Below are positions 9,372-52,233 of a DNA stretch of 64,000 bases, in pieces. The DNA lies in the IMG/VR virus record IMGVR_UViG_3300029880_000003, positions 2,978 through 66,977 of that record, one strand, 5' to 3'. This DNA comes from a virus. Lineage: Duplodnaviria; Heunggongvirae; Uroviricota; Caudoviricetes. Under the pieces are notes generated by a model that worked only from the letters and a program-made list of their open reading frames with translations, had not been told where the DNA came from and searched no databases. The translations under genes were made by a program, and so were the position numbers. How positions within the stretch are numbered: the first letter of the stretch is position 1; each line of letters starts with the position of its first letter.

Positions 9372-9376
9372 ATGCG

Positions 9377-13695: not shown

Positions 13696-13758
13696 TATTG
13701 GTACGGTGTTGTTCTATACTGGTATACAAATAAGGTTATACACCCAAGAAAGGAGCCG

Positions 13759-16814: not shown

Positions 16815-16831
16815 AGAGGTAGTATTAATTA

Positions 16832-17332: not shown

Positions 17333-17433
17333 ACAACAAAAGTTATATGCAAACAAGGGACAACATGTTAACTAAAATAGTCAAAAAACGAAGAAATAGC
17401 TAGCATGTTGTCCAAGCAAAGAAAGGATAATAT

Positions 17434-17985: not shown

Positions 17986-18006
17986 GCGACAATAAAACGG
18001 CATGAT

Positions 18007-18246
18007 GTGTGGCAACAAAACAAACTTGTCATGCGTCATGCCACAATAAGTTTGAAGGAGTTAACAGTGAACGATTTCAATTTTAAAGATTTTATATTCA
18101 ATCGTGCATTCCTTATCCTGCCGTTTACATGGCTAATTATCTTAGTGTTCAGTGTGTTCACAGATAATAACATTCTTGCAATTATCAGTAGCACTGGATT
18201 TTATGGAAGTCTCATTCTTGATGCGCTTGAACAAGATAGAGGGTAA
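18007..18246 (+). CDS. small membrane protein (start may be GTG 18068)
   Basis: Two hydrophobic segments. Confidence 0.55.
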   Translation: MWQQNKLVMRHATISLKELTVNDFNFKDFIFNRAFLILPFTWLIILVFSVFTDNNILAIISSTGFYGSLILDALEQDRG

Positions 18247-18378
18247 GTATGTTAAACAAATACGGAGTAATTCAGATTTTCCGTTTGCATTGCTTGTAGA
18301 ACAGAAGGTAGAAGAATATATGAAATACCTTCAAAATGAAGGTGTTCTCAGTGGTCACATAAGAGGAGAGTATATTTA

Positions 18379-18918
18379 ATTAGTGTAGTAGCAGTAAAGG
18401 TATATGACGATAAGATTCAAATCGCAGCCGATTCCATTGTTTGCAGAGGAGACTCAAAGAGAGTAGATGATAATTTTACAAAGCTTGTAAACATCAACGA
18501 CATGATTATTGGCTGTTTTGGATTATGCGAAGAGTCAAGCCTACTGTACCATTATGCAGAAACTCATAAGCCTTTAAGCACAAGCGAAAAAGATATCCTC
18601 GCTTTTATCATCGAGTTCTCAAAATGGAAAAACGATCTCGTTGGAAGCCCTAGCATTAATAATGAATACATTATCGTGTTTGACGGACATGCATTTATCG
18701 TTGTTAGTATGTTTGTTAACGAAGTCAAGAATTATGCCGCTATTGGTGCTGGTCTAGATTTTGCTAACGCAGCCCTATATCTCGGACACTCCCCAAAAGA
18801 ATCGGTTAAGGTAGCTTGCGCTTTGTTCTGCTATGTTGCTGAGCCAATTATTGAATATGAGGTAAAACTCGGCAGCAATAAAAACAAGAACAAAAACAAG
18901 AACAAAAAGAAGCATTAA
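18379..18918 (+). CDS. Ntn-hydrolase / HslV-proteasome-beta-like protein, probable ATT start
   Basis: In-frame (I/M)SVVAVKVYDDKIQIAADS upstream of the tracked ATG; AAIGAG motif; GAGGAG RBS at 18363. Confidence 0.6.
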   Translation: MSVVAVKVYDDKIQIAADSIVCRGDSKRVDDNFTKLVNINDMIIGCFGLCEESSLLYHYAETHKPLSTSEKDILAFIIEFSKWKNDLVGSPSINNEYIIVFDGHAFIVVSMFVNEVKNYAAIGAGLDFANAALYLGHSPKESVKVACALFCYVAEPIIEYEVKLGSNKNKNKNKNKKKH

Positions 18919-18943
18919 CTCACTACAAGCATAAGGAGTATAT

Positions 18944-19216
18944 ATGAGCAAAGATAAGAACAATACTTCAAAGCATTGTGCAAATTGCAAGTATTGGGAA
19001 TGTTATAACGAAAAAGAATTTGAAAAGTTCGGAGAATGCACAGAAGGCGAATGCCATCGCTACCCACCAAACACACTTAACTTTGAGCGAGTGAACGAGA
19101 TGGGCATCATGGTTCCCGAAACGATTATGAATACGCCACTCCTTAGTCATCCATTTACGTTTGCTTCTGAGTGGTGTGGTGAGTTCAAGCCAATGAAGAA
19201 TCCAAGGTGGGTGTAG
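18944..19216 (+). CDS. Cys-rich hypothetical protein
   Basis: CANCKYW...GECHRYPP...WCGEF. Confidence 0.75.
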   Translation: MSKDKNNTSKHCANCKYWECYNEKEFEKFGECTEGECHRYPPNTLNFERVNEMGIMVPETIMNTPLLSHPFTFASEWCGEFKPMKNPRWV

Positions 19217-19217
19217 C

Positions 19218-19898
19218 GTGTCGAACTATATGATGAAATATAAAGGCAGTTATAGACTACTCCCCGTAATTGACCAGTCAACGAATGATTTTCCAAGGGA
19301 TTCAAATGGAAACATCGAAGACGATCTTGAGATTTACGTGTCTTGCCAAAACGGTAATCGAATTGAATACTACGGACTCAATGATAGTAGACGAGCCGTA
19401 TTGCTTGCCTATGTCCCGTCACTCGGACGTGGTAGAAACATCAAGAAGGCTTTGAAGAAGCAGGGTGTGGATATTCTTTTTTACGATGAATCAGACGAAG
19501 AGGTGCTGTTCCACTTCAACGCAACTGATATCGAAACGGTTGCAACTCTTCTAAAAGCCAAGACCAGTGGTGCTAACATTTCACCAATGAGCAAGAGAAA
19601 CTTGCCAAAGGTAAAGTTTGAGTTACCCGAAGAAGACATGGCTGCATATAAGGATATTGTCGATAAGGTAGATAAGAACGACAAACTGCTGATTCACCGT
19701 ATCACTACGGAGTTTCTTGATAAGGTTCTTGCTAAAGAGCTTAGACCAAAAGGCACTAGAAAGCCTTATGACTACAAGACCGAGATGAAGAAGCTGAAGC
19801 TCGCCAGTGATTCAAAGGGCTACATTTGGACTAAGGAACTTTGGAACGAGTATCTTGAATTTCTAGAAAAAGAGATCAATTCTTATTACAACAAGTAA
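19218..19898 (+). CDS. hypothetical phage protein
   Basis: 226-aa ORF. Confidence 0.75.
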   Translation: MSNYMMKYKGSYRLLPVIDQSTNDFPRDSNGNIEDDLEIYVSCQNGNRIEYYGLNDSRRAVLLAYVPSLGRGRNIKKALKKQGVDILFYDESDEEVLFHFNATDIETVATLLKAKTSGANISPMSKRNLPKVKFELPEEDMAAYKDIVDKVDKNDKLLIHRITTEFLDKVLAKELRPKGTRKPYDYKTEMKKLKLASDSKGYIWTKELWNEYLEFLEKEINSYYNK

Positions 19899-19900
19899 GG

Positions 19901-19914
19901 ATATATGCTATAAT
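19901..19914 (+). promoter_or_regulatory. extended -10 promoter element
   Basis: ATATATGCTATAAT, same as 6195-6208. Confidence 0.55.
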
Positions 19915-19968
19915 GCCAATTGTATAGTGAATCAGCTATACAATCAGCGTTTTGCTAAGGAGGATATA

Positions 19969-20688
19969 ATGCTAAAGATTGAAAACACTGAAACCTACGG
20001 CTGGGAAGCAGCTGTCCGAGGTATGCGAAATCCGATGAATTCTTGGGATAAGAGCGATAGTTATGATGGATGCTTAGACAAGGATATGTTTGAAATTTTT
20101 AAAGAAGATGGCGATATCCCAAAGAACGCAGTTTGGACAGATGATTTCATCAAATCTGGATGTACATTTGTTATTGGTAATAAAGATTTAAATTTAGCAA
20201 AAAAACTCGCTAAAGCTGGTACAGACCATCGTAAATTCATGCGTATGATTACTGTATATTGTGACATTATCGCTCCATTGTATTGGTGGAAGGAGTTCGA
20301 TACTTACAAGGTTGGCACTGTCGCAAATTCTTGCAGTACGATACATAAAATTCAGGATAAGGAATTCGTAATGGATGACTTTAGCCATGAGCATCTTAGT
20401 GCAGACGTTTCCAATCGAAGTGCAATTGGGATACTTAGGCTTACTGTTCAAGTCCTTAATGATAATCGATATAAATATCTCGAAACCAAAGACAAGAAAT
20501 ATTGGTGGCAGATGATCCAACTTCTTCCGTCATCCTACAATCAGAAGCGTACAGTCATGCTTAACTACGAAGTCCTAGCTAATATTTACACGTCTCGTAA
20601 AGGGCATCGTCTGGACGAGTGGAAAACTATGTTGGATTGGATTGAGACGCTACCATACTCTGAACTAATCACTGGAAAGGAAGAATAG
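19969..20688 (+). CDS. conserved phage protein, divergent ThyX-like
   Basis: GWEAAVRGMRNP, HRKFMR, APLYWWKEFDTY, RKGHRLDEW; family recalled, not searched. Confidence 0.6.
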   Translation: MLKIENTETYGWEAAVRGMRNPMNSWDKSDSYDGCLDKDMFEIFKEDGDIPKNAVWTDDFIKSGCTFVIGNKDLNLAKKLAKAGTDHRKFMRMITVYCDIIAPLYWWKEFDTYKVGTVANSCSTIHKIQDKEFVMDDFSHEHLSADVSNRSAIGILRLTVQVLNDNRYKYLETKDKKYWWQMIQLLPSSYNQKRTVMLNYEVLANIYTSRKGHRLDEWKTMLDWIETLPYSELITGKEE

Positions 20689-20689
20689 C

Positions 20690-21193
20690 ATGGCAGTAGT
20701 TAGCTATAATGAAAGTAAGAACGGTAAAAACAATTCTCTTATTATTCATGGTAACAAGGAGGAGCTTAAGAAAGTAGCTGAGTTCGTGAACGGCATGTAC
20801 GACAAGCCTGTTAATGATGACGATAATGATGAAGGTGCGGCTGATATGGTTAACGAACCACCTCATTATATACATGGCATGGAATGCATTGATGAGATGG
20901 TTTTGGTATTCGGCAAAGAAGCCGTAATGAATTTCTGTCTTTGTAATGCGTGGAAATATCGTTACAGAGCGCCATACAAGGGTGATATTGAAGAAAACAT
21001 GCAAAAGAGCCGTTGGTATTTGAACAAGTATAAAGAGCTAAAGGGTTCTATTATTGTTTCTAACCAAAACATTATACATAGTAACCTAAAGCCTTTGTCA
21101 TATAACGATTGTGTGCTACGAACGCCTTATCCATATACAGATGATAAGAAAGTATGGTGTGGTACGACTACCAATACAACAATGAACAGCTAA
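20690..21193 (+). CDS. DUF3310-like protein
   Basis: DMVNEPPHY..ECID..NAWKYRYR..KG. Confidence 0.75.
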   Translation: MAVVSYNESKNGKNNSLIIHGNKEELKKVAEFVNGMYDKPVNDDDNDEGAADMVNEPPHYIHGMECIDEMVLVFGKEAVMNFCLCNAWKYRYRAPYKGDIEENMQKSRWYLNKYKELKGSIIVSNQNIIHSNLKPLSYNDCVLRTPYPYTDDKKVWCGTTTNTTMNS

Positions 21194-21205
21194 ATATATA
21201 TGCTA

Positions 21206-21230
21206 TGGGGCTGCAACAAGCCCCATTTTT
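21206..21230 (+). terminator. rho-independent terminator
   Basis: TGGGGCT-loop-AGCCCCA followed by T5. Confidence 0.7.
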
Positions 21231-21326
21231 GTGCAAATATTCTTTATAGAACTTATCTTTTGTAATTTACGTAAAACAAAGATACAATATTGTTGTAAAA
21301 ATATATTATAAAGGTGTGTTAACATC

Positions 21327-22523
21327 ATGGGGAAAGACCTTAAAGGCAAAGACTTGGGGCGCGGATACAGTCAACGAAAAGACAAGCGATATGAAGCGAG
21401 GTGCATGATTAATGGTGTTCGCATTTGCTTATACGATATGCATCTCCCAACATTAAAGAAACGCTTTGAAGAAGAAAAGATTAAAATTCTAAGAGACGAA
21501 AAGAATATTAGACCAAACCTTACACTGTCTGAATGGTTTGAAGAGTGGTTTGAAAAATACAAAAAGCCAGCATTGAAATCAGAAGTATCTAAAAAGGCAT
21601 ATCATAGAAAAGTATCAAACACATATATTGCCGCAATAGGAGATAAAAAGATAGAGAATATATCTCATATGAATATGCAAGACGCAACAAACGAATTGCT
21701 TAATAAGTTCAAAGCAAGAACATTAAGAGAAGCACTTGGCGTACTTAGAGAGTGTTTAGATATAGCTGTGATGAATCAAATCATTAAGTCTAACCCGTGT
21801 ATTAATATAGCAATTAAAGATGAGAACGAAGCCGTTCAAGAACGCAGGGTCTTGAGTTCTCGTGAAATGAAGATGTTCTTAGATGAAATAGAGCATGAGT
21901 ATTATAATGAAGCTTACCAAATCCTATTGCTTACTGGCATGAGGATAGGTGAATTCAGCGGTCTTCAATGGCAAGATATAAACTGGCAAAACAAAACGAT
22001 TAGGATACAAAGAAGCCTGAGTATTGGTTATGTTGACGGCAAGAAAATGGAATATCTCACAACGCCTAAGACAAGTAATAGCTATAGAACTATTCCATTC
22101 TTCGGAAACGTAGGTGAGCTATTTAAAGATTGGAAGGTAAAACAAGACCAATACAAAGCAAAGCTTGGAAATAGATGGAGATTGCGACCAGAGTTAGGTG
22201 ATTTAGTTTTCACGACAACACTTGGCTCGCCAGTAACAAGATATGCGCTATCTCATAACATTGAAAAGGTATTGAAGAATATCAATGAAAAAGAGAAATA
22301 TAATGCTTCAGTAGAAGGCAGAGAACCAGAAGAAATGGCACATATTTACCCACATGCTTTCCGACATACATTTGCTACTCGATGTTTTGAGAAAAAATTA
22401 GACCCAGTGTTTATACAAAGAATTATGGGTCATACTAGTTATGCTACCACTTTGAAATATACGCATCTTTTAGAAACTAAACTGAATGAAGAGGTAGCAA
22501 AAGCAGAAGACTTCCTATTATAA
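21327..22523 (+). CDS. int: tyrosine integrase with N-terminal arm-binding domain
   Basis: GMRIGE, HAFRH, MGH, KY; N-terminal GYSQRKDKRYEAR. Confidence 0.92.
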   Translation: MGKDLKGKDLGRGYSQRKDKRYEARCMINGVRICLYDMHLPTLKKRFEEEKIKILRDEKNIRPNLTLSEWFEEWFEKYKKPALKSEVSKKAYHRKVSNTYIAAIGDKKIENISHMNMQDATNELLNKFKARTLREALGVLRECLDIAVMNQIIKSNPCINIAIKDENEAVQERRVLSSREMKMFLDEIEHEYYNEAYQILLLTGMRIGEFSGLQWQDINWQNKTIRIQRSLSIGYVDGKKMEYLTTPKTSNSYRTIPFFGNVGELFKDWKVKQDQYKAKLGNRWRLRPELGDLVFTTTLGSPVTRYALSHNIEKVLKNINEKEKYNASVEGREPEEMAHIYPHAFRHTFATRCFEKKLDPVFIQRIMGHTSYATTLKYTHLLETKLNEEVAKAEDFLL

Positions 22524-23568: not shown

Positions 23569-24342
23569 TTAAACACCGATCACATAACGAAGAACCATGT
23601 TCCTGTTATCAACAGTTTGACCATGAAGAGATAAAGCAGAATTGTTGTTTACAGCATTGCCTTTTATCTCATTGTTGTTGATATAAAGATACTTCTTGTA
23701 GAACTTCCCTCCACGTTCAAGTATAAACGAGAATCCGCCACCGCCGTCATTTGCAACAGCATATTTAGGAACGAAGAAAGAGTTCCAGCTAGAGTTAACA
23801 GGTGCAGTATTAGTAACATCATAGGCACTGAATATCAATGAGATTCCATGAGGCTGTGCGGATACATTGCCAGAAAGTGTAATTGTGGCATCCTCTTTTA
23901 CATATAAAGCACCGCTCCACAGCACTTTGTTTTGCCCATAATTAGCACCAGAAAGCCCACCATCTCTACTCCAAATACGTACTGAGTCTCCATAAATATT
24001 AGTTGACCCACTAGATTTCTGATAATTGTCATATCCAATAGCGGTATTGCCAGCAGCAGACATCGGTACGAACACATTCTTTAGTGTACCGTCAGCAGCC
24101 TTACCATTTATAGCTGCTTCTACGCCCATGTTGATGTCTTTACTGGTTGTGACATTGCCTGTAAGTGTGCCACCATTTAAAGGAAGATAGTTATGCGAAT
24201 GGCTCTTTGCTGCATACTTGTTAGGCAGAGTATTGTGTATTGCATCCATAGCATTTAAATCATCGGTTAAGCAGCGTGTGGAGTCCGAACCTCTCCAAAT
24301 ATCGTCCGTTGAGTACAATCCAACAAAATCTTGACTGGACAT
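23569..24342 (-). CDS. fibre/receptor-binding-like structural protein
   Basis: N-terminal STDDIWR..RCLTDD motif, YLPLNGGTLTG, VLWSG..LRYVIGV C-terminus. Confidence 0.7.
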   Translation of the reverse strand: MSSQDFVGLYSTDDIWRGSDSTRCLTDDLNAMDAIHNTLPNKYAAKSHSHNYLPLNGGTLTGNVTTSKDINMGVEAAINGKAADGTLKNVFVPMSAAGNTAIGYDNYQKSSGSTNIYGDSVRIWSRDGGLSGANYGQNKVLWSGALYVKEDATITLSGNVSAQPHGISLIFSAYDVTNTAPVNSSWNSFFVPKYAVANDGGGGFSFILERGGKFYKKYLYINNNEIKGNAVNNNSALSLHGQTVDNRNMVLRYVIGV

Positions 24343-24389: not shown

Positions 24390-25604
24390 CTAAATAACGT
24401 TATGAGGTTTGCCATTCTGATCGTAGATGGTCATAATTGCGTAGTGCTGCTCTCCACTGGAATTATATGTATAGCAAAGACCAGTATGAGCCTTACCATC
24501 TTGGTCATAAAAGGTTATGCGAGAAGCAGCCAGCTCCCAAACTGCATATAAAGTAAGGCTTGCATTTGTAGAATACTTGTCCCCGCCATGATATTTAACA
24601 TCGCCAGTAGGAGATGTTGACCAACCTAAGAAGTTATAGCGCTGTCTCGTAGGCTTTGTGGTAGAGATAGTTGCTGTGGCATCGTAATCTTTTACCTGTG
24701 GCTCTGGAACGCCAGTACCACCATTGCCATCGTATCGAATAGCATATTTCAACCTGTCCCATACAGCTACCATCGTTGTACTAGCATTCGTTGTGTATGA
24801 ATCACCTGGATTATATCTCTTCGATGATTCTTCCCAATATAAGAAGTTGTATCCTTCATATGTAGGAATAGTTTTAGACAGCGTTAGATTTGTAAAGTAT
24901 TTCTTCGTCTGATTGCCAGGAGCGCCAGTTCCTCCATTAGCATTGTATTTTACTGTATAAGTAAGCTCTTCCCAAATAGCTATCAGAGTTTGATTTCCAT
25001 TATATGCAACTGTGTCACCTGGCTGGTAGTAAGGTTGAGTCTTATATTTGCTATCGATATCTGAGCGGTTTGTAACGCCCCATCCTTTGAACGTGTAACC
25101 AGTTTTCGTAGGTTTCGTGCTAGACAGAGTAAGGTCTTCATTCCACCATTTAGTTTGACTGTCGGGAGCGCCCTTACCGCCATCAACATCGAACGAAACC
25201 GTGTAAGATGTCTTAGCACCAACCCAAACATTAACAGTTGTCTCAGTGCTGCCGTAATAGCCACCATAATCGTTTACTGGCTGAAGGTTTACCCATACTT
25301 TAACTGGCACATTACGACCAGACTTACCCTTTGAAATTGTAGTATAACCAGATGTTTCAGCGGCGGTTCTATATGAACCTCCTGGGTTAGATGATAGATA
25401 TCCACTAGCAGAACCTCTATCCGTACCATCAACATTGCATACTACTCTTACGCCATATTGATAAGCCCACTTGAACTGAGCGCATACATACCAATAAATA
25501 GTTGCAGATCCATCGGCATTCGAATTAACATATGCATTGACGTAACCGCGCACATATCTTTTACCGTTGTAAAATGTTTTCTCAGGAGTATAAGCATCTG
25601 CCAT
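24390..25604 (-). CDS. structural protein with three InlB-B (Listeria-Bacteroides) repeats
   Basis: YTVSFDVDGG..PTKTGYTFKGW, YTVKYNANGG..PTYEGYNF, IRYDGNGG..PTRQRYNFLGW. Confidence 0.8.
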   Translation of the reverse strand: MADAYTPEKTFYNGKRYVRGYVNAYVNSNADGSATIYWYVCAQFKWAYQYGVRVVCNVDGTDRGSASGYLSSNPGGSYRTAAETSGYTTISKGKSGRNVPVKVWVNLQPVNDYGGYYGSTETTVNVWVGAKTSYTVSFDVDGGKGAPDSQTKWWNEDLTLSSTKPTKTGYTFKGWGVTNRSDIDSKYKTQPYYQPGDTVAYNGNQTLIAIWEELTYTVKYNANGGTGAPGNQTKKYFTNLTLSKTIPTYEGYNFLYWEESSKRYNPGDSYTTNASTTMVAVWDRLKYAIRYDGNGGTGVPEPQVKDYDATATISTTKPTRQRYNFLGWSTSPTGDVKYHGGDKYSTNASLTLYAVWELAASRITFYDQDGKAHTGLCYTYNSSGEQHYAIMTIYDQNGKPHNVI

Positions 25605-27373: not shown

Positions 27374-27838
27374 CTACTTCCATTTACCAACAACACGCAC
27401 ATAGACGCTAACATCGAAGTCTAGGTCTGCTGGATTGGAAATACGAAGACCCAACTTGTTATTGGTATTCAGATATACGCTTACATTGGGAACACCTTGC
27501 TCACACTCGGCAGTGCAGTATACACGTTGCTTCGCTCCAATAAGCTCAACGGGGTAATTAACCTCAATCTCGTTGTACTTAACATCATAGTAAGATTTTG
27601 CAAACATACCACTGACAGAAAGCCTTGCTTCACATTCGATTCTTCCGTTGCCGAATTTCTTAAACTCCCATAAGCCATCAGAACCAACTTCAACAGTATC
27701 AAGATTGCCTACTGTGCTTTTGAGTTCCTTAATGTCTTCCTCAATAAAATCAAGGTCATCCGTCAGGCAACGGTTAGTGTCTTCTCCGCGCCAAACTTCA
27801 TTAGATGATACTACTGGGTTGAAAGCATTAGCTGACAT
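27374..27838 (-). CDS. fibre-tip-like protein with gp53-like C-terminal domain
   Basis: N-terminal NEVWR..RCLTDDL; WEFKKFGNGRIEC..V.GKWK; ATG of MSANAF. Confidence 0.7.
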   Translation of the reverse strand: MSANAFNPVVSSNEVWRGEDTNRCLTDDLDFIEEDIKELKSTVGNLDTVEVGSDGLWEFKKFGNGRIECEARLSVSGMFAKSYYDVKYNEIEVNYPVELIGAKQRVYCTAECEQGVPNVSVYLNTNNKLGLRISNPADLDFDVSVYVRVVGKWK

Positions 27839-27931
27839 ACGCATCCTCCTTTTGTAATGAATAATCAATTAATTGTATCTTATTATTGTATTTCAACATT
27901 TTCCAAAAAATATTTTCACATTTTCTATATG

Positions 27932-27986
27932 AAAAATCCCACGCACAATATATACTATTTCTCGTGTAAAACTGCGTGGGATTTTT
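27932..27986. promoter_or_regulatory. 14-bp inverted repeat around the predicted recombinase -10 box (putative operator)
   Basis: AAAAATCCCACGCA / TGCGTGGGATTTTT flank TATACT (27951). Confidence 0.7.
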
Positions 27987-28007: not shown

Positions 28008-28919
28008 ATGAAAATTATCGACATTTATGAGCAACATTACCTGCCTGAGAAAACAGCAAAAAGAGCCGCATCTACCATCTCTGGATACGACTCTTCTATG
28101 CGTCTTCACGTTCTTCCACGGTGGGGAGAATGCGAGATTGAGGATATCGACCCAGACGATTTGCAAGAATGGGTTGACTCGTTCGAACTCAACGGAGCAG
28201 CAGAGAAAGCATTCAAATGCCTTCGTCAAATCATCCGATGGTGGGTACGCAAGAAGCGTCTTCATATCGCCGACCCGACTATCTATATTGAACTCAACTC
28301 CCGTGAGCCATATAGGGCAGAAGTTCTCGATGCCACAGAGGTGTCCGATATGCTTCGCGGTATGTGGGGTCATTGGGCAGAGGCAGTCACCATCTGTGCT
28401 GTAACCCTCGGTCTTAGAAGAGGAGAGGCTTGCGCTCTTGAATGGTCTGATATCAACCTGAAAACAGGAGAAGTTCGCATTAACAAGTCAAGGCAATACA
28501 TAAAAGGCAAGACTGTCACGTTAAGAACCAAGACAGATAAATCTACAAGGTCGTGCTATCTACCTAAATTCGCACGTCAGCGCCTAAAGCAAATTAAAGG
28601 AACTGGTCTTCTAACAGGCGATACATCGCCAGACAGGGTTGCTCGCGCAATCAAGAGGCAATGTGAGCGCCAAGGAGTACCACATGTATCTATGACAAAT
28701 ATGCGTCATACATGGGCTACTCTAGCTGTAGAAGCTGGCGTAGGAATTGAGACTGTAGCTATGATGCTTGGGCATACAGACATTAGCACCGCATATAACC
28801 ATTACATTATTCCTCGCAAGACTATATGCCAGGAAGCTCAGGCTGCGGTAGAGAAGCTATTGTTCGATAAGGCTAAAAAGTTAAGCATCTGTCTGTTGTT
28901 TGATAAGGTGTCGAGATAG
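28008..28919 (+). CDS. tyrosine recombinase (shufflon invertase)
   Basis: GLRRGE, TNMRH, LGH, HY; its TAG stop is part of the first recombination site; oriented against the tail genes. Confidence 0.9.
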   Translation: MKIIDIYEQHYLPEKTAKRAASTISGYDSSMRLHVLPRWGECEIEDIDPDDLQEWVDSFELNGAAEKAFKCLRQIIRWWVRKKRLHIADPTIYIELNSREPYRAEVLDATEVSDMLRGMWGHWAEAVTICAVTLGLRRGEACALEWSDINLKTGEVRINKSRQYIKGKTVTLRTKTDKSTRSCYLPKFARQRLKQIKGTGLLTGDTSPDRVARAIKRQCERQGVPHVSMTNMRHTWATLAVEAGVGIETVAMMLGHTDISTAYNHYIIPRKTICQEAQAAVEKLLFDKAKKLSICLLFDKVSR

Positions 28920-29246
28920 CATTCCATATCCCCAACCAAAACGACAGGAGATGGATATACCGCTTATCTCAGCAAACGCATCATTGTTGGAACCACCATT
29001 GTCACGGCGAGTGGAAGTTATCAAGTAAAACTGTTTACAAAAGCTCAATTCAAAGCCATTGCTGGTCGTTATTTTGATTACTTAAAAGACTTCATCGTTG
29101 TTATGAACGCAGATTTTCATGATGCAATGGCTGTTCATGTTACTAGCGCTGGATACGAAAGTACCAAAGGAGATATTTATGCTCTATATGAAGGAACACG
29201 TAACGGCAATCTTCGTATAAACTATCTAATTATACTTGGCGAATAG
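28920..29246 (+). other. silent cassette 1 (SISPTKTTGDG...INYLIILGE*)
   Basis: Open frame from the site to the TAG of the next site. Confidence 0.88.
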
Positions 29247-29528
29247 CATTCCATATCCCCGTTATTTAAAGTAACCAGATATACAAGCAAAGCACAAGAT
29301 GTTGCCTCTGGTAGTGTACTTGAATACACCGAAACTCTTAAGAAAATAAGCGGCTATAGTCCAGTTGGGATAGTAGGGACAACTACAAACCACGAATGGT
29401 CATTTGCTTTGTTTCAATCAAAAATGAACAGCGACAACACTTTTGTCGCAACATGGATGAATTTCAACAAAAACACGTGGAAGGGCGCGTATGGCATAGT
29501 AGACGTTCTATATATTAAGAATCTCTAG
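29247..29528 (+). other. silent cassette 2 (SISPLFKVTRY...VDVLYIKNL*)
   Basis: Open frame from site to site. Confidence 0.88.
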
Positions 29529-29795
29529 CATTCCATATCCCAATACGGTACAACAAATTTCTCGTCACAACAGTTGAGTGTCTGGAAAAATATGAATATG
29601 TGTACAGTTGACGTACCAATAGGTAAAACACTTCCTAACAATACGTACACGGTTGTTCCAGTAATTCAACGAAATGGTGTTCCGTTTACGTGTTCTGTTG
29701 TTTCAAAAACTACAACATCATTCAAACTCTACGTTTGGACAATGGGAGATTTCGGTGCAGAAAGCTTCACAGTCAATTGGCATATTAGTTATTAG
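29529..29795 (+). other. silent cassette 3 (SISQYGTTNF...VNWHISY*)
   Basis: Open frame from site to site. Confidence 0.88.
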
Positions 29796-30140
29796 TATTC
29801 CATATCCCAAGTAGAATATTTCGCATCTGAGTCAAATACTTTTAATGTCACACCAAAGATATCTGGTATTGTTGAGGTTGAATGTGTTGTGCATTCAACT
29901 TTTGGAGCGTGGGCAAATAAGCTAAGTGCGAGAATCGCCACGCCAGATGGGTTAACGCTTATAGCAGGAACGGCAAGTGCAGTTAACGGAAATGACCAAG
30001 TTCTACGATCATTCAGGGCGCATGCCGTATTTTCAGGTGTAAAGTCTGGCAGCGCATATAATTTCTCTGTTTATAGAACTGACGGCTCATTCGGGAACTC
30101 ACCGTCATTTTCATGGTTTATTACTGTTCGTCAATACTAG
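29796..30140 (+). other. silent cassette 4 (SISQVEYFAS...WFITVRQY*)
   Basis: Open frame from the site. Confidence 0.88.
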
Positions 30141-30158
30141 CATTTTTCTTGGGCTTAG

Positions 30159-30383
30159 CATTCCATATCCCAGTTAGAGGATGACCTAAAAACATTAACC
30201 AAAAAATTCAATACGCTGAACGGATGCTTCTCGTTCACCAGTGGGCTTTCTGGCATCGCGTTCCATGCTTGGGACGGCGGCTTCCAGATTGCCACAAAAG
30301 GTGGTGCGCAGCAGAAGATTGCCACGTTCGACAAAAACGGTATCAACTTTTATCTGGACGGCAACTACACTTGGCACAAATAA
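30159..30383 (+). other. silent cassette 5 (SISQLEDDLK...GNYTWHK*)
   Basis: Open frame from the site; TAA stop. Confidence 0.85.
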
Positions 30384-30391
30384 TTTGATAG

Positions 30392-30733
30392 CATTCCATA
30401 TCCCAAGTAACTGACTGGACATACCTTGTTGAATCATCGGCTGGAACGACGCTAACAACGGGATACGTGCGATACAGGGTCAACCGTTTTGCTGTTGAGC
30501 TTGACATTGATTACCCTATCACCGATGCATCCGACAAAAAGCTAAGCAAGTTGATTCCCACCAACCTTCGCCCGTATGAGACATTATGGTGGGCGATCTG
30601 CGCCACTAAAAGATGGAACATATCAGACCATATGGCTTACTGCGAAGTGAATAAAGACGGCACTGTGTGGATTGGCAGAAAAGGAGCCGAAGCCGAAGGG
30701 CGTGTGGTCGGCTCGGTTTCGTGGGTTATTTAG
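30392..30733 (+). other. silent cassette 6 (SISQVTDWTY...GSVSWVI*)
   Basis: Open frame from site to site. Confidence 0.88.
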
Positions 30734-31051
30734 TATTCCATATCCCAGGTTACTTTAAAAACCGTCAATGGTATCACTTGTACTTATCGAGTGTGGTCAA
30801 AAAAAGTTGTCGAATGCTGTGTCTCAGGAACAACTACTAATACCCTTAGCTCTGGCAGTGTCATTAATTTCGGAACAATCCCATCTGGGTTACGTCCGAA
30901 AACAACATCGTTTATCATATGTAACGTTCTCTGGAACGGTGGAAAAGTATATTTTAGAACTTATAATGACGGAAGCGTTAGCGTACTATGTGCCGACCAA
31001 GAATTTTCAGGAGGATCTTCTGTTCGTTGTTCGAGAACATGGATTATTTAG
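30734..31051 (+). other. silent cassette 7 (SISQVTLKTV...CSRTWII*)
   Basis: Open frame from site to site. Confidence 0.88.
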
Positions 31052-31369
31052 CATTCCATATCCCCTACAACTCCGTCATTAATTACAGGAAATGGATATG
31101 TTGTCCATAAAGTTGGCAGAATCGTCCTTGTAACAATAAGCCTAAATACATCGATAGGAGATGCTTGGGGTCAAAAATCGATAGCAACATTGCCAAGCAA
31201 CTATGAGCCAATTAAGGAATGTAATTGTGCGCTCGCTGTACAAGGAGGCTACGATAGCTCCGTAGTAGCAAGAATAACTCATAGCTGTAATATAGTTATA
31301 CAAGGAAAAGGTACGGGATGGCGCAGTGGTTGGGTATTTGGGTCATTTGCGTATATTAGTATCGAATAG
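31052..31369 (+). other. silent cassette 8 (SISPTTPSLI...SFAYISIE*)
   Basis: Open frame from site to site. Confidence 0.88.
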
Positions 31370-31726
31370 CATTCCATATCCCAAGCAAAGGACTACGTAG
31401 TAGAGCAAGGCATTAAAAGCGATTGGCAGTACGTCAAATGGGCAAGTGGTCGTGCGGAATGCAGCCGAACAATGGAAGCCAGCCTAACCAAGACAGGCAA
31501 CTACTGGCTACCTGAAGTTAGCCTTCCATTCGCGTTCAAGAAAACCGCAAACTCGCGATCGCGCTTCAGCATCTTCGTGTCTGGCGGTGATTACATTGCC
31601 CCTGTGCTTTACCCTAAATACCCAGTATCCGAATCGACCGTAACAAAAGTATGCTGCGCCGTCACATACGTCACAGCGACAGGCACTACTACGGTTAATT
31701 ATCTTGTTCGTGGATGGTGGAAATGA
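31370..31726 (+). other. silent cassette 9 (SISQAKDYVVEQG..WQYVKWASGRAEC..VRGWWK*)
   Basis: gp53-like fibre C-terminal motif; tail-to-tail with the expressed cassette. Confidence 0.88.
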
Positions 31727-32140
31727 TCACTCGTACAAGATTGTCAACGAAGCTCCGATGTACTGACTAACGCTTCCGCGCAATGTGATGCTGCTTGCAT
31801 CGTAATCTGACAACACGATTCGGTCGCTGGTGCTATGGCAAACGTATGTCAAAAACACGGCTTTGATCTTCGCGAAATCGACACCCCACGAGACACTTAC
31901 ATTCGTGGTGGTGTTCTCGCCGATGTAGATATTGGGGAGCGTTAGCTTCGATGTTTTCAGCGCATGGGATATGGAATCCCACGCACTTTGCAAAGTGGTA
32001 TTATCTGACAATTTTATATCGCTGGCACCAAGCGTAACATTGGAGGACAATGCCTTTCCGTTGATGGTTCTCGTATTGGGAACCTTTGAATTCACCTCTG
32101 ATTTAGTGGCATAGATTGTGTTTAGATTTACCCAAGCCAT
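31727..32140 (-). CDS. expressed shufflon gene: 54-aa constant part, DSIS site, current variable tip
   Basis: GAAGGTG RBS; KVPNTRTINGKALSSNVTL fibre motif; site in frame as W-D-S-I-S. Confidence 0.88.
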   Translation of the reverse strand: MAWVNLNTIYATKSEVNSKVPNTRTINGKALSSNVTLGASDIKLSDNTTLQSAWDSISHALKTSKLTLPNIYIGENTTTNVSVSWGVDFAKIKAVFLTYVCHSTSDRIVLSDYDASSITLRGSVSQYIGASLTILYE

Positions 32141-32242
32141 ATAATCACCTTCCTAGTTGATATATTGAAAATAAGAAAAAGAAGGGTGCGAACACTAAGT
32201 TCACACCCATTGTAATAACTTATTCAATCTAAAAATATAAGA

Positions 32243-33379
32243 CTATTTGCTGGAAATCATTTGCTCAATCAGTGCAACGACCTCAGCTTTTGAATACACA
32301 TCAAGATTATCTCTTGCAGCGGCAGCAGTGGTAGCACCAGTACCACCCTGCGCAACTCCCAATGTGCCATAAAGATTTGCAACGCTCGGTCTAACGATGT
32401 CGATGACCCATTGAGTGCCATCGTACATAACGCGAACAGGCTTATTTGCAACAAGCATGTTGCTTGAACTCAGAGTAGTCGTAGCAGTTGTGTTGTTGGA
32501 TATCTTCATCCTAATGTTCTTGGCACCAAGCCCATTCACATTAATGGTTGGATTGACTTTTGTACTTGTAACATTGGGAATCATCACGAAGCTCACGCCA
32601 GCAGTTAGAGCCGTGATTCCATCTACAGATGCAACATATGCCCCGCCAGTGCCAGTGGTGGTAACAATTTTATCGCCACCGTTTTCTTCTCCCCAAACAG
32701 CGGTGCCGTCAGAAGACCAGCGAAGAACCTGTCCGCTCGCACCGCCAGCAGGGACATGCTTGCTGCCAGCGGCGATAGGGTGCGTATACACCGTATCCTT
32801 GGATGCAATTGTAACAGACTTGCCATCGGTATTAGGGGTAAGCGTTACATTGTTCCCAGCAATCATGGTCAACGTATCGGTCTTTGCACCAGAGGAAATA
32901 GTTGAGCTGCCTACTTTTACCTTTGAGAACGCATTCTGATTAGCCTCTGCGCCACTAGGGGCATGGGTAGACTGAGAATGGGCATACGCAGCATCCCAGT
33001 TGGTTTTCTTCGCAGATGTAACATGCACATCGGCATTGCCAGTGTGGGAAGTCAAGATGCTTGAGTCAGCCTTCGCGCTCAGCTTCGAGTCAACGTCTGA
33101 CTTCTTGTAATAAGAGCCGTCATGGTTATGGTTAGTAGAGGCATATTCTGTATGCGTGTGATTGACATTAGCCTTGCTGCTTAAGGCATCTCTAACTGCG
33201 GTCACGTCTTCGGCTGTAGCATAACCCGTATGTGTATGGTTCTTTGCTGCATAAGTGCTTGGCAAAGAAGCGTGAACTGCATCAATAGCATCGATATCAT
33301 CCGTTAAACAACGGGTCATGTCGGTGTCTCTCCAAATATCGTTTGTTGAATAAGTTGGTGTAAAATTCGGGTTAGCCAT
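32243..33379 (-). CDS. tail-fibre-like protein
   Basis: N-terminal STNDIWR..RCLTDD, HTH repeats, NVNGLGAK domain. Confidence 0.78.
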   Translation of the reverse strand: MANPNFTPTYSTNDIWRDTDMTRCLTDDIDAIDAVHASLPSTYAAKNHTHTGYATAEDVTAVRDALSSKANVNHTHTEYASTNHNHDGSYYKKSDVDSKLSAKADSSILTSHTGNADVHVTSAKKTNWDAAYAHSQSTHAPSGAEANQNAFSKVKVGSSTISSGAKTDTLTMIAGNNVTLTPNTDGKSVTIASKDTVYTHPIAAGSKHVPAGGASGQVLRWSSDGTAVWGEENGGDKIVTTTGTGGAYVASVDGITALTAGVSFVMIPNVTSTKVNPTINVNGLGAKNIRMKISNNTTATTTLSSSNMLVANKPVRVMYDGTQWVIDIVRPSVANLYGTLGVAQGGTGATTAAAARDNLDVYSKAEVVALIEQMISSK

Positions 33380-33432: not shown

Positions 33433-35904
33433 TTAAATATAAACGTATACCTCTGGGCTGCCGTTATTTGGCTCGATCCATATGCTTCCCTGAGTAACGT
33501 CAGTAGAGGGGACATAGGTGCCGTAGTATATAGGCTTAACACCAAGATTATCCCTTGCAGTAGCAGCATCAGTTGCACCAGTGCCACCACCAGAAACAGG
33601 AACAGTGCCGTATAGCCCAGAGGCATTGGGTCTAAAGCCATCGATAACCCATTGAATACCATCATACATAACATCTACTGGCTTGTTTGCAACCAGAAAA
33701 TTTCTGACTGTAAAGCCAGTTGTTGCACTCGTATAACCAGACAGGCGCATCCTAAGATTCTTTGCACCAAGCCCGTTTACGTTTAATGTAGGTGTGACAT
33801 CTGTACTTGTCGTATGCGGAATCATAGTGAACTTAACACCTGCTGTGAGAGACGTGATGCCATTGACAGTGGCAGTATATGCAGCACCAGTACCAGCGGT
33901 AGTGACTGGGTTTATGCCGATGTTAGTCCTGATGCCATCTACGGTATTAGTTCCAGTACCGCCATTGCCGATAGGCAAGATGCCCGTGACACCAGGCGCT
34001 ATGTTGGCAGAACCATTAAATGATGCAGGAGAGGCAGAGCCAAGGTTCGTCTGAATAGTACGGCTTGTTGCAAGCTTGGTTGCCGTTGCTGCATTGCCAG
34101 AGCAAGAAGATGCAGTTGTAGCAGATGTTGCCGAAGTTGCCGAAGTTGCCGATCCAGCAGACGTAGCATATTTTACCGACTTATCGGCATCAGCAGTATT
34201 GTCTACGTTGCCCAAACCGACATCTGATTTGGTGTGTGTATGAGAACTGCTAGCCTTGCCGCTTAAAGCAGATGTAATAGCGCTCTGTGTCATGGTGCCG
34301 TCTGTATTAGTACCAATGCCAGAGTAAAGCTTAGTAGTGCCAGTAGCAGTAGCGCTGCCAACAGGATATGTAGTATTTGTAGTAGGAGGAGTATAGCCAA
34401 GAGCCGTAGTCACATTTGCCTTGGTAAGCTCTCCACGGATAGTGGCAGAAGATTTGTTCTCAACGCTGCCAAGACCTAAATCAGATTTGGTTGTACCGTG
34501 TGGATTTCCAGTCTCCTGAGAATGGTCATAAGCAACTTTGCCTCTATCGCCACGATAAGCAGTAGAAGAAGTTTCTCCGAGAGCAATCGTATCAGAGATT
34601 ACTGCAAAGGCAGAGCCACTCCAGCGATAGATCTTATTCGTATTTAAGTCAGTATAAATCTTACCAGCCTCACCAGCAATCTCAGTGCCGTAGGTGCTAT
34701 CGGAGTTCTTCGTCTTATAAAACTTTGAACTAGAATAATAGCCTTCGATAACATCATCTACATAGCCAGGCAAGTTAGCAGCAGGTATTACACCACTTAG
34801 CTTGCTTGTGGCATCAATAGTGCCAGTTATCTCGCTATAGCTGTAAGACGGTTTTGTACTTGCTTTAGCCCAAGAGCTAACATCTGATGCTGGCATAGAA
34901 GTGGGAAAGTCAGCAATCTGAGATTTCGTATGCGTATGACTTGAAGCAGCAGCGCCAATGCTTGATGGCGTGATGTTGATGGACTTTGCAACAGAGCCAT
35001 CATACGCACCTTGAGAAGCCCCGTTCAATGAAATCGTAAGCGAGCTGGGATTCTTCATCGTTGTCGGGAAATCCGTAATCTGAGACTTAGTATGGTTATG
35101 ACTTGAAGCAGCAGCGCCTATATCTGATGGTGTAGGTTTGTATAAGGTACTGTAGTAATATCCCCAGTCACTCCACGAAGAAGCATTGAATTGTCTTGTC
35201 CAAGTTTTCCCAGCAGAAGCATTGCCTTCGATTAGAATCTGATTAATATATCCAGTGGAAGTTCTCTGAACTGTCAACCCAAATGCATCAACGCCAGACG
35301 GCTTATTCGTAACGGTATTGTCTCCGTCAGCATAATAAGTGCCAGTTGCCTTAATGTTGTTTAGGCTCTCAGTTGTCAGTTGGTTAGCATTCAAATAACT
35401 AGCGGTTTCAGCAGTATCGGCATGTTTAACGCTTTTGTCTGCGTCAGCGGTATTGTCTACATTACCCAACCCAACTTCGGATTTAGTATACGTAGGCTTT
35501 GTAGCAGCCTTTGCCCATGCAGGAACATCACTTGCTGGCATTGAAGTGGGGAAGTCGATGATCTGACTCTTGGAATGAGTATGCACAGAAGCAGCCTTCT
35601 CACTCAACTTGTCATCCACTTCTGATTCTGTATAATAAATATCATTATGGTTATGCGCAGAATCGGCAGCACCTACATCAGATGCAGATAGGGCAACATC
35701 AGCAGACAAGCTCTTTCCATTTACTTTTCTTGTCGTAGGAACCTTGCCAGAAAGAGCAGAGTTCACTACCTTGTTCTGCACTGGGTTAGTTGAAGTAGAG
35801 CTGAGTGAGCTATCTACAGGATGCGTATGAGACTTCGAGGCAAACGTGTCTCTGAGCTTCGCAAGAAAATCTGTCAGTCCAGTAAGGTCAAGATATTTAA
35901 CCAT
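33433..35904 (-). CDS. long tail-fibre-like protein with internal repeats
   Basis: HTHxKSQIxDFP x3, VGLGNVDNTADADKSVK x2, pyocin-knob-like segment, NVNGLGAK domain. Confidence 0.82.
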   Translation of the reverse strand: MVKYLDLTGLTDFLAKLRDTFASKSHTHPVDSSLSSTSTNPVQNKVVNSALSGKVPTTRKVNGKSLSADVALSASDVGAADSAHNHNDIYYTESEVDDKLSEKAASVHTHSKSQIIDFPTSMPASDVPAWAKAATKPTYTKSEVGLGNVDNTADADKSVKHADTAETASYLNANQLTTESLNNIKATGTYYADGDNTVTNKPSGVDAFGLTVQRTSTGYINQILIEGNASAGKTWTRQFNASSWSDWGYYYSTLYKPTPSDIGAAASSHNHTKSQITDFPTTMKNPSSLTISLNGASQGAYDGSVAKSINITPSSIGAAASSHTHTKSQIADFPTSMPASDVSSWAKASTKPSYSYSEITGTIDATSKLSGVIPAANLPGYVDDVIEGYYSSSKFYKTKNSDSTYGTEIAGEAGKIYTDLNTNKIYRWSGSAFAVISDTIALGETSSTAYRGDRGKVAYDHSQETGNPHGTTKSDLGLGSVENKSSATIRGELTKANVTTALGYTPPTTNTTYPVGSATATGTTKLYSGIGTNTDGTMTQSAITSALSGKASSSHTHTKSDVGLGNVDNTADADKSVKYATSAGSATSATSATSATTASSCSGNAATATKLATSRTIQTNLGSASPASFNGSANIAPGVTGILPIGNGGTGTNTVDGIRTNIGINPVTTAGTGAAYTATVNGITSLTAGVKFTMIPHTTSTDVTPTLNVNGLGAKNLRMRLSGYTSATTGFTVRNFLVANKPVDVMYDGIQWVIDGFRPNASGLYGTVPVSGGGTGATDAATARDNLGVKPIYYGTYVPSTDVTQGSIWIEPNNGSPEVYVYI

Positions 35905-41900: not shown

Positions 41901-44900
41901 CTTCCTTGCCATAAGTCATGGTAAGTTCGCCGCTGTTGTTAATACCAAGGCTCGAATCATTATCATAGTCCCAAAAATCAAAACGATATCCGTTATTGAT
42001 GCCAGCAGCTTCGTCATCAACAGTATAATAAGCAGCTTTGTCTCCAAGTGTTGTTGCTTCAGCGGTAGTGATGTAATGCTTAGCCCAATGCCAGAAGGTA
42101 TTTTTACTTCTGTTGTCGATCATCGTATATCTAAGTGTAAACAAATAAAAATACGTAGCAGAATCAACAATAAACCAATTGCCGAGTTTATTCTTAAAGT
42201 CTTCATCGCTTGAAGTAATTACGAACTCATAGAAATCTCGCCAAATCTGCTTATTGCTCGTTCTAATTTGCTCTTTTGTTTCATCAGTAGAGATAGATGA
42301 GCCGTCTTTTGTGTCTCCACAGCAGTCATAGCGGAACTCAAACGAGCCGTCCCAATCGTTATACAAAGCGTCATAGGCTTCATTCCCAGCAACCCATTCA
42401 GCCTTTGTGATAGGATACTTCATAGAGCCATCAGATTTAGCAACACCAGTCTGGAAGATGGAGTTAGGCAACGTGTTATCGCTAATCTCGATTGTGAATT
42501 CCTTCATGTCATCAGGATCATATGCTCTTGTAACATCTGTCTTCTTAGAATCGCCGATGTTCGCTAACGCGTAGAAATGGTATTCTGTATCTTGAAATTC
42601 CCTGTGAGTCGTTAAATCTGGGTCGCTTTCCTTAATGAAGACAACACAGTTTACAAACTCCATATCATTCTTAATCCTAGAATCTCTGCGAGTTGCAGGG
42701 GTAGAATATGGGAGATAATCATTATATCTCTTCTGAAGGTATGCGTTATTTACCATCTCGGAGCTTGCAATATTAACTTTTAAATTTAGCCAGTTATTCG
42801 GTACAGATGTTCTAGTAAGCGAAACCTTGCCAGTGCCATCCGTAACTGTACTGCCGTCACCAAGCGTAAGCTTAGTAATGTAATTCGGGTCTAGCTCAAT
42901 TTTGCTAGTCACTTGATGCTTGCCATCAAATCCACCAATAATATCAATGTTACGACCAGCAGCGCCATATTCATTGGAAGTTGTCCCTTGTCCAGAATGT
43001 ACCATGTTTGTAAACTTCCAGTTATCAAGAACCGCATCGCCATTTTTATAGATACATTCAACATTCGTATTTAATACAAAATCTTTCTTGTTGTTTGTAA
43101 AGTGAGGTGCCTCAATCTTGATAACTCTCATATCAGGACAAGCTTCCGCAACAGACTCAGGAGTAAGAATGTTGTTCTCGTTATAAATCTGATTTCGATT
43201 ATAACGGTCAATCATCTCCGTAGCGGTACGTGCATCTGCGATAAAGTTAGACAAAATAGCAGAACTTGTAAGGCTTGTATTATAAGCCTTCATACGGTAA
43301 ATCATAACATCACAATCAGCAGAACCAATCGTAATAGGAACTGGGTTCTCCTGTGTGAAAGAGTAGTCATTTGTATAGCTCATAGGGCGGCAAGGAGTAC
43401 CATCTTCATAAGACATAACGATAGGAATGTCCGTATCCTTATTGATATTGAACTCCCATTCAATAATATCCTCTTCGCTATATGGAATATACAGGGACTT
43501 TGCATTTGATTTAATATAAGCCTCATGCACATTCATCTGAAGACCAATTACAGATGTGTCACCAGACTGACAAGTAAGGAATGTAGCATCGCTCTTTGCA
43601 ACATTCGTGGTCTTGAACACAAGCTTAAATTCCTTGCCGTTTCTCCTAGCATCATCTGCAAACAGATTATAAGAGATAACGACAGATGTACCAGCTTTCA
43701 CGCAGAAATACTGATCGCCATTCTCATCAATCTGATAGCCACCGTTAACCCAGTCGAAATTATCAGATACGGTCATAGCAACATCACCGTCAGACCAAAG
43801 CCTATCTGCATCATTGTTCGACTTACCAGATGGATTGAAGTCAAATGCAAGACCAGCGGTAACAGGCTCGATATCGACATCAAGTTTCTCAATAGTTGCA
43901 ACAATGGTCTTCGCTGTCTTGCCGCAAGTAATAGTAAGAGTGTGTTGACCAACATCAGAAGACTTATATTGCCAAGTCTGGGTATTGTTATCGATTGTCA
44001 AAGTCGATACAACCTTGCCATCAACAGCCAATGTCACCTCTGGTGTTTCAGTAGAAGGGTCATACACGGTGTATACAATGTTGGTCGCATCGTATTGCTT
44101 TGCCGTGAGCTTCTGCTGAACACAGCCGATAACGGGAACATCGCTTGAAGGATTGTACCAAATAATATCCTTCATGATATGGTTTGACTCGATAGTGCTG
44201 CCATTGATCTCTGCCGTCATATAAACTTCGAGAAGATGAGAGCCATGTTCCTGAGAAGGCAACTCGTATCCCAGCGGAACACCAGACACAGACGTTTCAA
44301 CGGCACCAAGTTCTTTACCGTCCAAAACAAAGTGAACGGTCTTTGAAATCGCGCCATAGGGAGTGTAGTCAAAGGAAACCTTGCCAATTGGATAAGTCAG
44401 CTTGTCATTAAAAGTAGACTCAATGCGAACATCTACTTTTTGAACAGTCCAAGATTTAGTTACAAGGCTTCCTGCGTCATCAACAATGCTCAGGTTTACC
44501 TTCTGCGTACCAACGGTAAGATAGTCGGTAACATCAAAAGAGTTCTCACCAGCAACAGCGGTATTCGTTGCCACAATAGAACCACCAACTCGCCAAGTTG
44601 CCGTGCCTTCCATAACTGCATCGCCAGAAGAGTCCGTACCAGAGAAGTTGTACTTGATTATAACCTTATCTTCGAGAGTTGAGACAATTGGTGTGGCAGT
44701 TACATATTCGATCTTAAGCACACTGCTCGTGCTACCGCCACCGCTGCCGCCTTGAATCTTAAACTGGCTCTTAGCAGTTCTTACCTCAGAATCGCCATTG
44801 CCCTCATTCTCAATCTCCCACAGCGTATAGATGTTGTCTTCTCCGTAGGTAGCGTCATAAGTAAGACGAGGAGATTTGTCAATGCCGTTAATTGAATCTT

Positions 44901-46176: not shown

Positions 46177-46208
46177 CCTCCTTTCAAACTAATTAATATT
46201 AGCAATAA

Positions 46209-46853: not shown

Positions 46854-47004
46854 AAAGGTGTCACCTCATTTCATCAGTGTTTACAATAGTATATATTCGG
46901 TTACACCATAGACATCTCAAACGAATGTATGATGCAAAGAAGAAAGTTATCAAGTCATGGAGCGGAGCCACATGTCACGCCCCATGACTTGCAAGATAGC
47001 TAAA

Positions 47005-48016: not shown

Positions 48017-48018
48017 GG

Positions 48019-48324: not shown

Positions 48325-48361
48325 GACTCACCTCCTTGATGCTTACGATAAAGCGCCAGCA

Positions 48362-52220: not shown

Positions 52221-52233
52221 AGCACATCACACC

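Follow-up and report, generated by a model that had tools for sequence, protein, structure and literature searches.

A predicted ten-cassette Rin-type shufflon among the tail-fibre genes of a large low-GC phage

Layout of the locus and its reading frames

The window analysed here is a 64,000-nucleotide stretch of a tailed-phage genome (IMG/VR record IMGVR_UViG_3300029880_000003, positions 2,978 to 66,977), which contains a putative Rin-type shufflon, a multi-way DNA inversion system, at 28008–32140. A tyrosine recombinase gene is followed by an array of ten short coding cassettes and a constant gene start on the minus strand, and the array lies among tail-fibre genes (PHROG). The parts of the locus are as follows (aa, amino acids).

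27931–27986, no strand assigned: putative autoregulatory operator, two site-like half-sites (TGCGTGGGATT each) in opposite orientation around the putative promoter of the recombinase
27929–27956: promoter-like match ATGAAA-16-TATACT, the putative recombinase promoter
28008–28919, plus strand: Rin-type tyrosine recombinase, 303 aa, core-binding and catalytic domains (PF14659 and PF00589), no arm-binding domain
28917–29246, plus strand: site 1 and cassette 1 (107 aa), from a family of 29 cassettes across related arrays
29244–29528, plus strand: site 2 and cassette 2 (92 aa), which adjoins the recombinase in contigs L165 and L167
29526–29795, plus strand: site 3 and cassette 3 (87 aa), 98% DNA identity from site to site with L001, where it has another position
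29793–30140, plus strand: site 4 and cassette 4 (113 aa), predicted jelly-roll head, PF21454 above cut-off; fused form P0149
30156–30383, plus strand: site 5 and cassette 5 (73 aa); fused form P0135, 97%
30389–30733, plus strand: site 6 and cassette 6 (112 aa), profile family of 7 and 8; fused form P0146, 75%
30731–31051, plus strand: site 7 and cassette 7 (104 aa); fused form P0151, 94%
31049–31369, plus strand: site 8 and cassette 8 (104 aa), predicted TP901-1/p2-type receptor-binding head; in the expressed position in L163–L166
31367–31726, plus strand: site 9 and cassette 9 (117 aa), which matches the tail fibre C-terminus phrog_2712 (E 2.9e-6); the 9/10 pair flips as a unit in L001
31727–31975, minus strand: cassette 10 (82 aa), joined to the constant part in this assembly; in a storage position in L001, L164 and L168
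31966–31981, minus strand: expression site TGGGATTCCATATCCC, the sole site of the array whose left and right arms are complementary
31976–32140, minus strand: constant N-terminus of 55 aa, a tail-fibre-like stem that has a ribosome-binding site of its own, PHROG tail fibre matches and 22 different endings
32174–32208, minus strand: terminator-like hairpin just upstream of the constant gene, kept in L164 and L167 and absent in L003 and L014

The element ATTCCATATCCC occurs exactly at 28921, 29248, 29530, 29797, 30160, 30393, 30735, 31053 and 31371 on the plus strand and at 31966 on the minus strand. These ten are the only copies with no or one mismatch in the whole 130,977-bp genome. Allowing up to two mismatches, the window holds 19 matches against a shuffle mean of 4.8, and none of 100 shuffles reached 19; chance repeats were rejected on the shuffle test and the genome-wide uniqueness of the ten sites. 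The nine direct sites have 16 bp in common, TAG(C/T)ATTCCATATCCC, and in the inverted site TGGG replaces TAG(C/T), so that just 12 bp are identical across all ten. A CRISPR (clustered regularly interspaced short palindromic repeats) array or tandem repeat was rejected because the spacing is 233–363 bp and every interval is an open frame, and an Rfam scan of the window gave no RNA family at gathering score.

Behind each site opens a start-less frame beginning S-I-S, of 107, 92, 87, 113, 73, 112, 104, 104, 117 and 82 aa for cassettes 1 to 10; the remaining two frames reach a stop after 4–50 codons. At seven of the nine direct sites the TAG in the left part of the site is itself the stop of the preceding frame (six cassettes and the recombinase), and cassettes 4 and 5 stop a few bases before the TAG of the next site. 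Cassettes 9 and 10 converge tail to tail without a site between them. The cassettes are dissimilar, with 3.9–28.6% identity over the 45 pairs. The inverted site lies within a 137-aa gene on the minus strand (31727–32140), in which the W of the junction motif WDSIS is residue 54, and the 55-aa constant start of this gene is 52% identical over 33 aa to an 823-aa fibre encoded at 33433–35904. The preliminary description of this DNA had reported nine direct 16-bp sites opening start-less S-I-S frames, an inverted site in frame (WDSIS) in a small minus-strand fibre gene, and a geometry in which inversion to any site would fuse that cassette in frame; all three points hold, with frames of 73–117 aa and frames at all ten sites that suit such fusion. 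It was also right that open reading frame (ORF) callers miss cassettes: numbers 1, 2, 5 and 8 are not in the 60-aa ORF list, and 3, 4, 6, 7 and 9 appear there from internal starts only.

Recombinase, sites and kinship with Rin

The recombinase contains PF14659 at residues 9–58, followed by PF00589, and no arm domain, which bears out the earlier claim of a tyrosine recombinase adjoining the array. R137, K175, R233, H234, H256 and Y266 are invariant among nine aligned homologues. The protein stops 37 residues after the catalytic Y266, at a stop codon that is the TAG of site 1. One base fewer near the 3′ end (28878–28919) gives 303 aa, compared with 298 aa in L001, L164, L167 and most cluster members. 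A separate 398-aa integrase with an N-terminal extension is encoded at 21327–22523.

Leaving aside two short matches and hits below 38%, homologues of at least 38% identity over more than 100 residues defined 75 loci, among them the window, and at 74 of these the same kind of site lies right behind the recombinase gene. The named hosts of these loci are Collinsella, Olsenella and Enteroscipio, and the nearest recombinase from a bacterial genome (73%) is in Enteroscipio rubneri of the Eggerthellaceae. Bifidobacterium-type homologues beside like arrays are 35–37% identical; that of Bifidobacterium phage PMBT6 (36%) has three TTCCGTAACCC sites and cassettes beside it. In a midpoint-rooted tree of 58 sequences thinned to 21 rows, the recombinases of the low-GC large phages group as a single clade (100/99) within the Coriobacteriia, where they join the Enteroscipio-type sequences (100/100). 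From the recombinase identity, the placing in the tree and the match of the sites, the recombinase and site are, by homology, Rin and rix, so that a likeness first proposed as an analogy extends to common descent of both components.

As judged from sequence, the system type is that of the published Rin shufflons. In the Bifidobacterium breve/longum prophages Bb423phi1, Bl157phi1 and Bl30698phi1, where rix is TTCCCTAACCC, the shufflon was described as putative, and how an armless tyrosine recombinase inverts without deleting, whether the recombinase is the catalyst and what the effect on host range would be were left open in that 2018 paper (PMC6109161). As in the window, an armless recombinase stands on one side and the constant start of a receptor-binding protein (RBP) on the other, start-less dissimilar cassettes follow an 11-bp site (nine of 11 positions shared with TTCCATATCCC of the window), cassettes resemble the TP901-1 head, and a separate integrase lies elsewhere (PMC6109161). 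Pairwise cassette identity is also comparable, about 6–30% there and 4–29% in the window. The Bifidobacterium systems differ in offering five alternatives rather than ten, in a constant part of 168 aa that is phage-1358-like (55 aa and unrelated in the window), in residing in small actinobacterial prophages rather than a 131-kb, 40%-GC phiCD211-like phage, and in that inversions were seen in reads of one lysate, compared with between assemblies only for the window.

A second Rin shufflon, in Eggerthella lenta clade 1 prophages, has the rix core ttccgtat (PMC8778435), which agrees with TTCCATAT of the window at seven of eight positions, the window having A for G in the core. The Eggerthella core is identical to the sites of sister large phages (L002–L019), and the layout is alike. 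These prophages are small and H-type lectin domains were reported for them (PMC8778435); a Pfam scan found no such domains in the window cassettes. The constant part spans 48–57 aa in the large phages versus 156–260 aa in the prophages, and tblastn of the 137-aa gene against 63 high-GC loci gave no hit at E 1e-6. We regard the finding as a variant of Rin because the constant region is not homologous to Rc of the actinobacterial prophages; new here would be the short unrelated stem and the large low-GC phage backbone.

More distant systems share parts of this design. The R64 shufflon (Rci, sfx, pilV; PMC11852207) likewise has a tyrosine recombinase, sites with a conserved core and right arm and a variable left arm, in-frame swapping of C-termini, and tail-to-tail cassette pairs that flip as one segment. 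It differs in acting on a plasmid pilus adhesin and in the extra C-terminal domain of Rci, and in the window the expression site itself is symmetric. An R64-type shufflon was rejected since the target is a phage tail gene and the protein is without the extra Rci domain. The p15B Min and Mu Gin/P1 Cin systems also invert alternative tail-fibre ends onto a constant start, but with serine recombinases and unrelated sites (PMC6109161), and a serine-type system was rejected since the protein belongs to the tyrosine family. An integron-type integrase was rejected as well (TIGR02249 at 38.8 bits, cut-off 265).

By analogy with the design of tyrosine-recombinase sites, the site can be read as GGGA–TTCCATA–TCCC, a 7-bp core with a short arm on either side, the arms being inverted relative to one another. 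Of 41 expression sites, 39 have GGGA as their left arm, compared with two of 183 storage sites, which are dominated by TAG(C/T)A; these counts use the majority core of each locus only and come from related loci that are not independent. For R64, the asymmetry of the sites was proposed to limit Rci to inversion, and excision is possible with symmetric ones (PMC11852207). Following that proposal, the left-arm asymmetry suggests that storage sites are weak and that the expression site is the preferred partner.

A related signal precedes the recombinase. The 11-mer TGCGTGGGATT has three copies in the genome, one as the left arm of the expression site and two, inverted to one another, before the recombinase gene, where one copy sits between the promoter-like −35 and −10 elements. 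An ATCCC…GGGAT pair 35–37 bases apart was found in 34 of 37 distinct upstream regions (72 loci) versus one of 14,600 control stretches, and the three regions missing the pair are one base off each. GGGATT is nearly invariant, the outer bases frequently lack complementarity (11–19 of 19), and PMBT6, whose right arm is AACCC, has its promoter pair in the AACCC form too. Because of these three features the evidence favours protein binding over an RNA hairpin, and we predict that the pair is a Rin operator. No description of the half-site pair or of the site hierarchy was found in the covered parts of the open-access Rin literature.

Rearrangement, receptor-binding heads and competing readings

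Shuffling is evident between strains and assemblies. A search with the 137-aa protein gave 47 homologues, 34 of which carry the constant start and junction motif, and at 60% identity grouping the constant start is joined to 22 different endings. Seven of the ten window cassettes (4–10) are fused to the constant start elsewhere at 75% identity or more. The preliminary description had expected alternative cassettes joined to the constant region, and these are present in public assemblies of different strains. Among seven close-strain contigs (L001 and L163–L168; recombinase identity 98–99% in the four that include it) there are 13 tail-to-head joins of window parts that are absent from the window itself, whose own ten joins do not recur in any of these contigs. 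Blocks of DNA homology with L001, L164, L165 and L167 start and end at sites, and several are flipped. In contigs from one wastewater study, cassette 9 is joined to the end of cassette 2, and loose ends fall at five of the site positions; we treat these contigs as weak support because they were matched at 88% likeness and are strain mixtures (sequencing runs with 5–19% of words, searched as contigs only).

All eight close-strain arrays examined have a single convergence point, the sole form that inversion between opposite sites can produce from the window layout. For n = 2–7, enumeration yields 2(n−1)! reachable states, which extrapolates to 725,760 for n = 10. Sister phages have up to 12–13 sites per array, so ten cassettes are not exceptional. 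The G-core sister arrays L002, L003, L004, L007 and L011 have back-to-back site pairs 10–25 bp apart and hence several convergence points, unlike the group of the window.

Where they could be tested, the cassettes appear to be receptor-binding heads: 4 and 8 by match, 6 and 7 by profile and 9 by PHROG. The other five, 1, 2, 3, 5 and 10, have no assignment. The model of cassette 8 has a mean predicted local distance difference test score (pLDDT) of 91.9 from a 30-row alignment, and its fold matches the TP901-1 RBP 2F0C (Z 10.8, root-mean-square deviation 3.2, 100 residues aligned) as well as the Listeria PSA RBP and the heads of bIL170 and p2. Tied with these matches is the tail needle of a Pseudomonas phage (Z 11.0), the next rows are at 7.1, and the Foldseek E-value is about 1e-3. 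Cassettes 6 and 7 join the profile family of cassette 8. For cassette 4 the match covers residues 61–162 in chain G (173 aa) of PDB entries 5E7T/5E7F (E 2.4e-7), which we take to be the Tuc2009 RBP. Among the neighbours, the fixed fibre genes at 23569–24342, 27374–27838 and 32243–33379 share an N-terminal motif (40–58% over 33–50 aa) that the shufflon gene is without, and the first of them, a 257-aa fibre, has a C-terminal domain with 36% identity to an L016 cassette. A 404-aa tail-region protein (24390–25604) has three Listeria-Bacteroides repeats (PF09479).

Taken together, we are confident, in line with the preliminary description, that the locus is a ten-cassette shufflon of the Rin type in which the adjacent recombinase likely inverts DNA between opposite sites, which would switch the receptor-binding head and with it the host strains recognised; the shufflon is real and very likely active. 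Rin would cut at a core of roughly 7 bp (TTCCATA) flanked by the GGGA/TCCC arms, and inversion between the expression site and any plus-strand site would bring in that cassette in one step, with every reachable state keeping one point of convergence. At storage sites the left arm would be replaced by the TAG stop of the upstream cassette, and the resulting asymmetry may restrain deletion between sites in direct orientation, as was suggested for Rci of R64, leaving the symmetric expression site as the favoured partner. Rin may further repress its own promoter through the two half-sites, about four helical turns apart. The product, a fusion of 128–172 aa, would be a trimeric, BppL-like RBP acting on a host that is likely a Coriobacteriia bacterium.

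Several observations speak against this account or parts of it. The histidine of the H-x-x-R motif is replaced in the recombinase (T230), as it is in nine of nine aligned homologues. The first site on the recombinase side has GGGA in 10 of 16 low-GC arrays and in none of 39 high-GC arrays, so symmetry is not confined to expression sites, and the promoter pair of the window can fold as an RNA hairpin (−24 kcal/mol). A strong terminator-like hairpin (32174–32208) precedes the constant gene; it is absent in the G-core sister phages L003 and L014. No fused form of cassettes 1, 2 and 3 was found at 75% identity among the 47 homologues, no match to a solved structure was found for cassettes 1, 2, 3, 5, 9 and 10 (cassette 9 has no PDB sequence match, and the Atlas hits of cassette 10 are all below 0.9), and the model of the 137-aa protein is poor (pLDDT 43). 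Finally, the evidence for rearrangement consists of comparisons of different assemblies, which strain differences or mosaic assembly paths could mimic; assemblies of a shuffling locus may be mosaic or short of cassettes, and counts over related loci are not independent.

The best surviving alternative, possible though on balance doubtful, is an open, integron-like library in which Rin, besides inverting DNA, cuts out and inserts cassettes bounded by sites, so that co-infecting phages from different families exchange them. The window and L001 share only four of ten cassettes, with homology ending at sites, despite 98.6% identity of the recombinase and 94–95% of the flanks. Nine arrays, the unrelated L169 included, hold 29 cassette labels at 75% identity, and array size ranges from 4 to 11 in close strains. 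A cassette of L001 has 92% DNA identity over 362 bp to a cassette of a Collinsella aerofaciens prophage, cassette 10 of the window has 82–84% DNA identity with cassettes in two high-GC arrays, and single G-core sites occur inside the A-core arrays L163 and L167. However, ordinary homologous recombination of co-infecting phages, or incomplete assembly, gives the same pattern, and no cassette circle or insertion event was seen (no dedicated search for circles was made). The poor score with the integron integrase model also argues against it. Integrons have folded single-stranded attC sites; the sites here are 12–16-bp repeats of the double-stranded type. In a 37-kb high-GC phage array (L143, 3610–5452) a cassette block occurs twice in tandem, by duplication between direct sites or as an assembly artefact. 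One cassette in L165 (4558) has a site changed by one base, and in L167 (6747) the same cassette follows a G-core site, its frame running for only 10 codons; given the changed site and the early closing, it may be a stuck passenger.

It is improbable that the cassettes are instead accessory adhesins of a minor fibre, directed at mucus or capsule, with switching altering persistence or adsorption rate rather than host range. Several fixed fibre genes do surround the array, one of them with a cassette-type end, and the constant part is only 55 aa long and is without the motif common to the three neighbouring fibres. Cassettes 4 and 8, however, match siphophage receptor-binding heads, and the match of cassette 4, which begins at residue 61 of a 173-aa protein, has the stem-plus-head proportions of the fusion. 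Least probable is a frozen shufflon, active in ancestors, whose recombinase or tip gene no longer works in this isolate: the longer recombinase, the simple nine-plus-one layout and the hairpin before the tip gene would suit it, but the catalytic positions are all intact, the length change lies 30 residues beyond the nucleophile, where the protein tail is variable, all ten sites are exact with all ten frames open, and the absence of the window's joins from close contigs fits recent shuffling.

For the preferred shufflon reading, the value lies in the predicted site hierarchy, promoter half-site pair and shared cassette pool, which are testable. The symmetric expression site set against asymmetric storage sites, and the half-site pair, provide two handles on inversion without deletion. 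A wider proposal, which we consider unlikely as it stands, is that Rin shufflons form an open shared library of RBP heads, in which the recombinase both shuffles cassettes and moves them between unrelated gut Coriobacteriia phages, a Firmicutes-type large-phage lineage having captured the system, with site hierarchy and self-repression setting direction and rate. If it were true, these last two features would answer the question of Rin directionality. A ten-way switch with a larger shared pool may explain why such gut phages are hard to plaque and to assign to hosts, and an 11-bp multi-site invertase of Actinobacteria-associated phages is a possible addition to Rci-type barcoding tools.

Phage backbone and host

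The genome is probably complete, with a 78-base terminal overlap, a length of 130,977 bp and a guanine-cytosine (GC) content of 40%. Its DNA polymerase III alpha is closest, among named phages, to those of Clostridium phage c-st (58%) and phiCD211 (50%). A temperate lifestyle is plausible because of the separate 398-aa integrase.

A Coriobacteriia host for this Firmicutes-type backbone is somewhat favoured by the sequence comparisons. Among these are the cassettes shared with the Collinsella aerofaciens prophage and the high-GC arrays. The endolysin shares 47.5% identity over its full length with one from a Coriobacteriia genome and 55% with that of Olsenella uli over the amidase domain, and it reaches 33% over the full length at best with named phages. 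Searches for a prophage or CRISPR spacer scored one or two candidates per genome, so spacers could be missed. A prophage search with the DNA polymerase (E 1e-150) was negative in all 301 Coriobacteriia genomes, positions 44000–63900 of the window gave one endolysin hit only against 401 Coriobacteriia genomes, and the DNA of the array had no match in 401 Collinsella-genus genomes. With positions 2000–21900 only nrdD matched, in 358 of 385 scored. A search with L158 in 151 Eggerthellaceae genomes gave one 34-nucleotide match, in a coding region without repeats, which was rejected as chance rather than a spacer, and another query (L160) found one shared membrane-protein gene in 151 genomes. No spacer or prophage fixing the host was thus found in these genomes, which counts against the assignment.

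NrdD is 75% identical to Collinsella, 66% to Enterocloster phages and up to 77% to faecal records, and is not decisive for the host. The nrdD gene (13759–16814), for an anaerobic ribonucleotide reductase, is split into parts of 448 and 304 aa by a 168-aa HNH-like gene, an arrangement that fits insertion of an intron or homing endonuclease, with no Rfam match at gathering score. A phage membrane-protein gene (G000:C1 113148–114149, and L162) shares 66% DNA identity over 218 bp with a gene that lies in a prophage-like region in a genome of the genus Collinsella.

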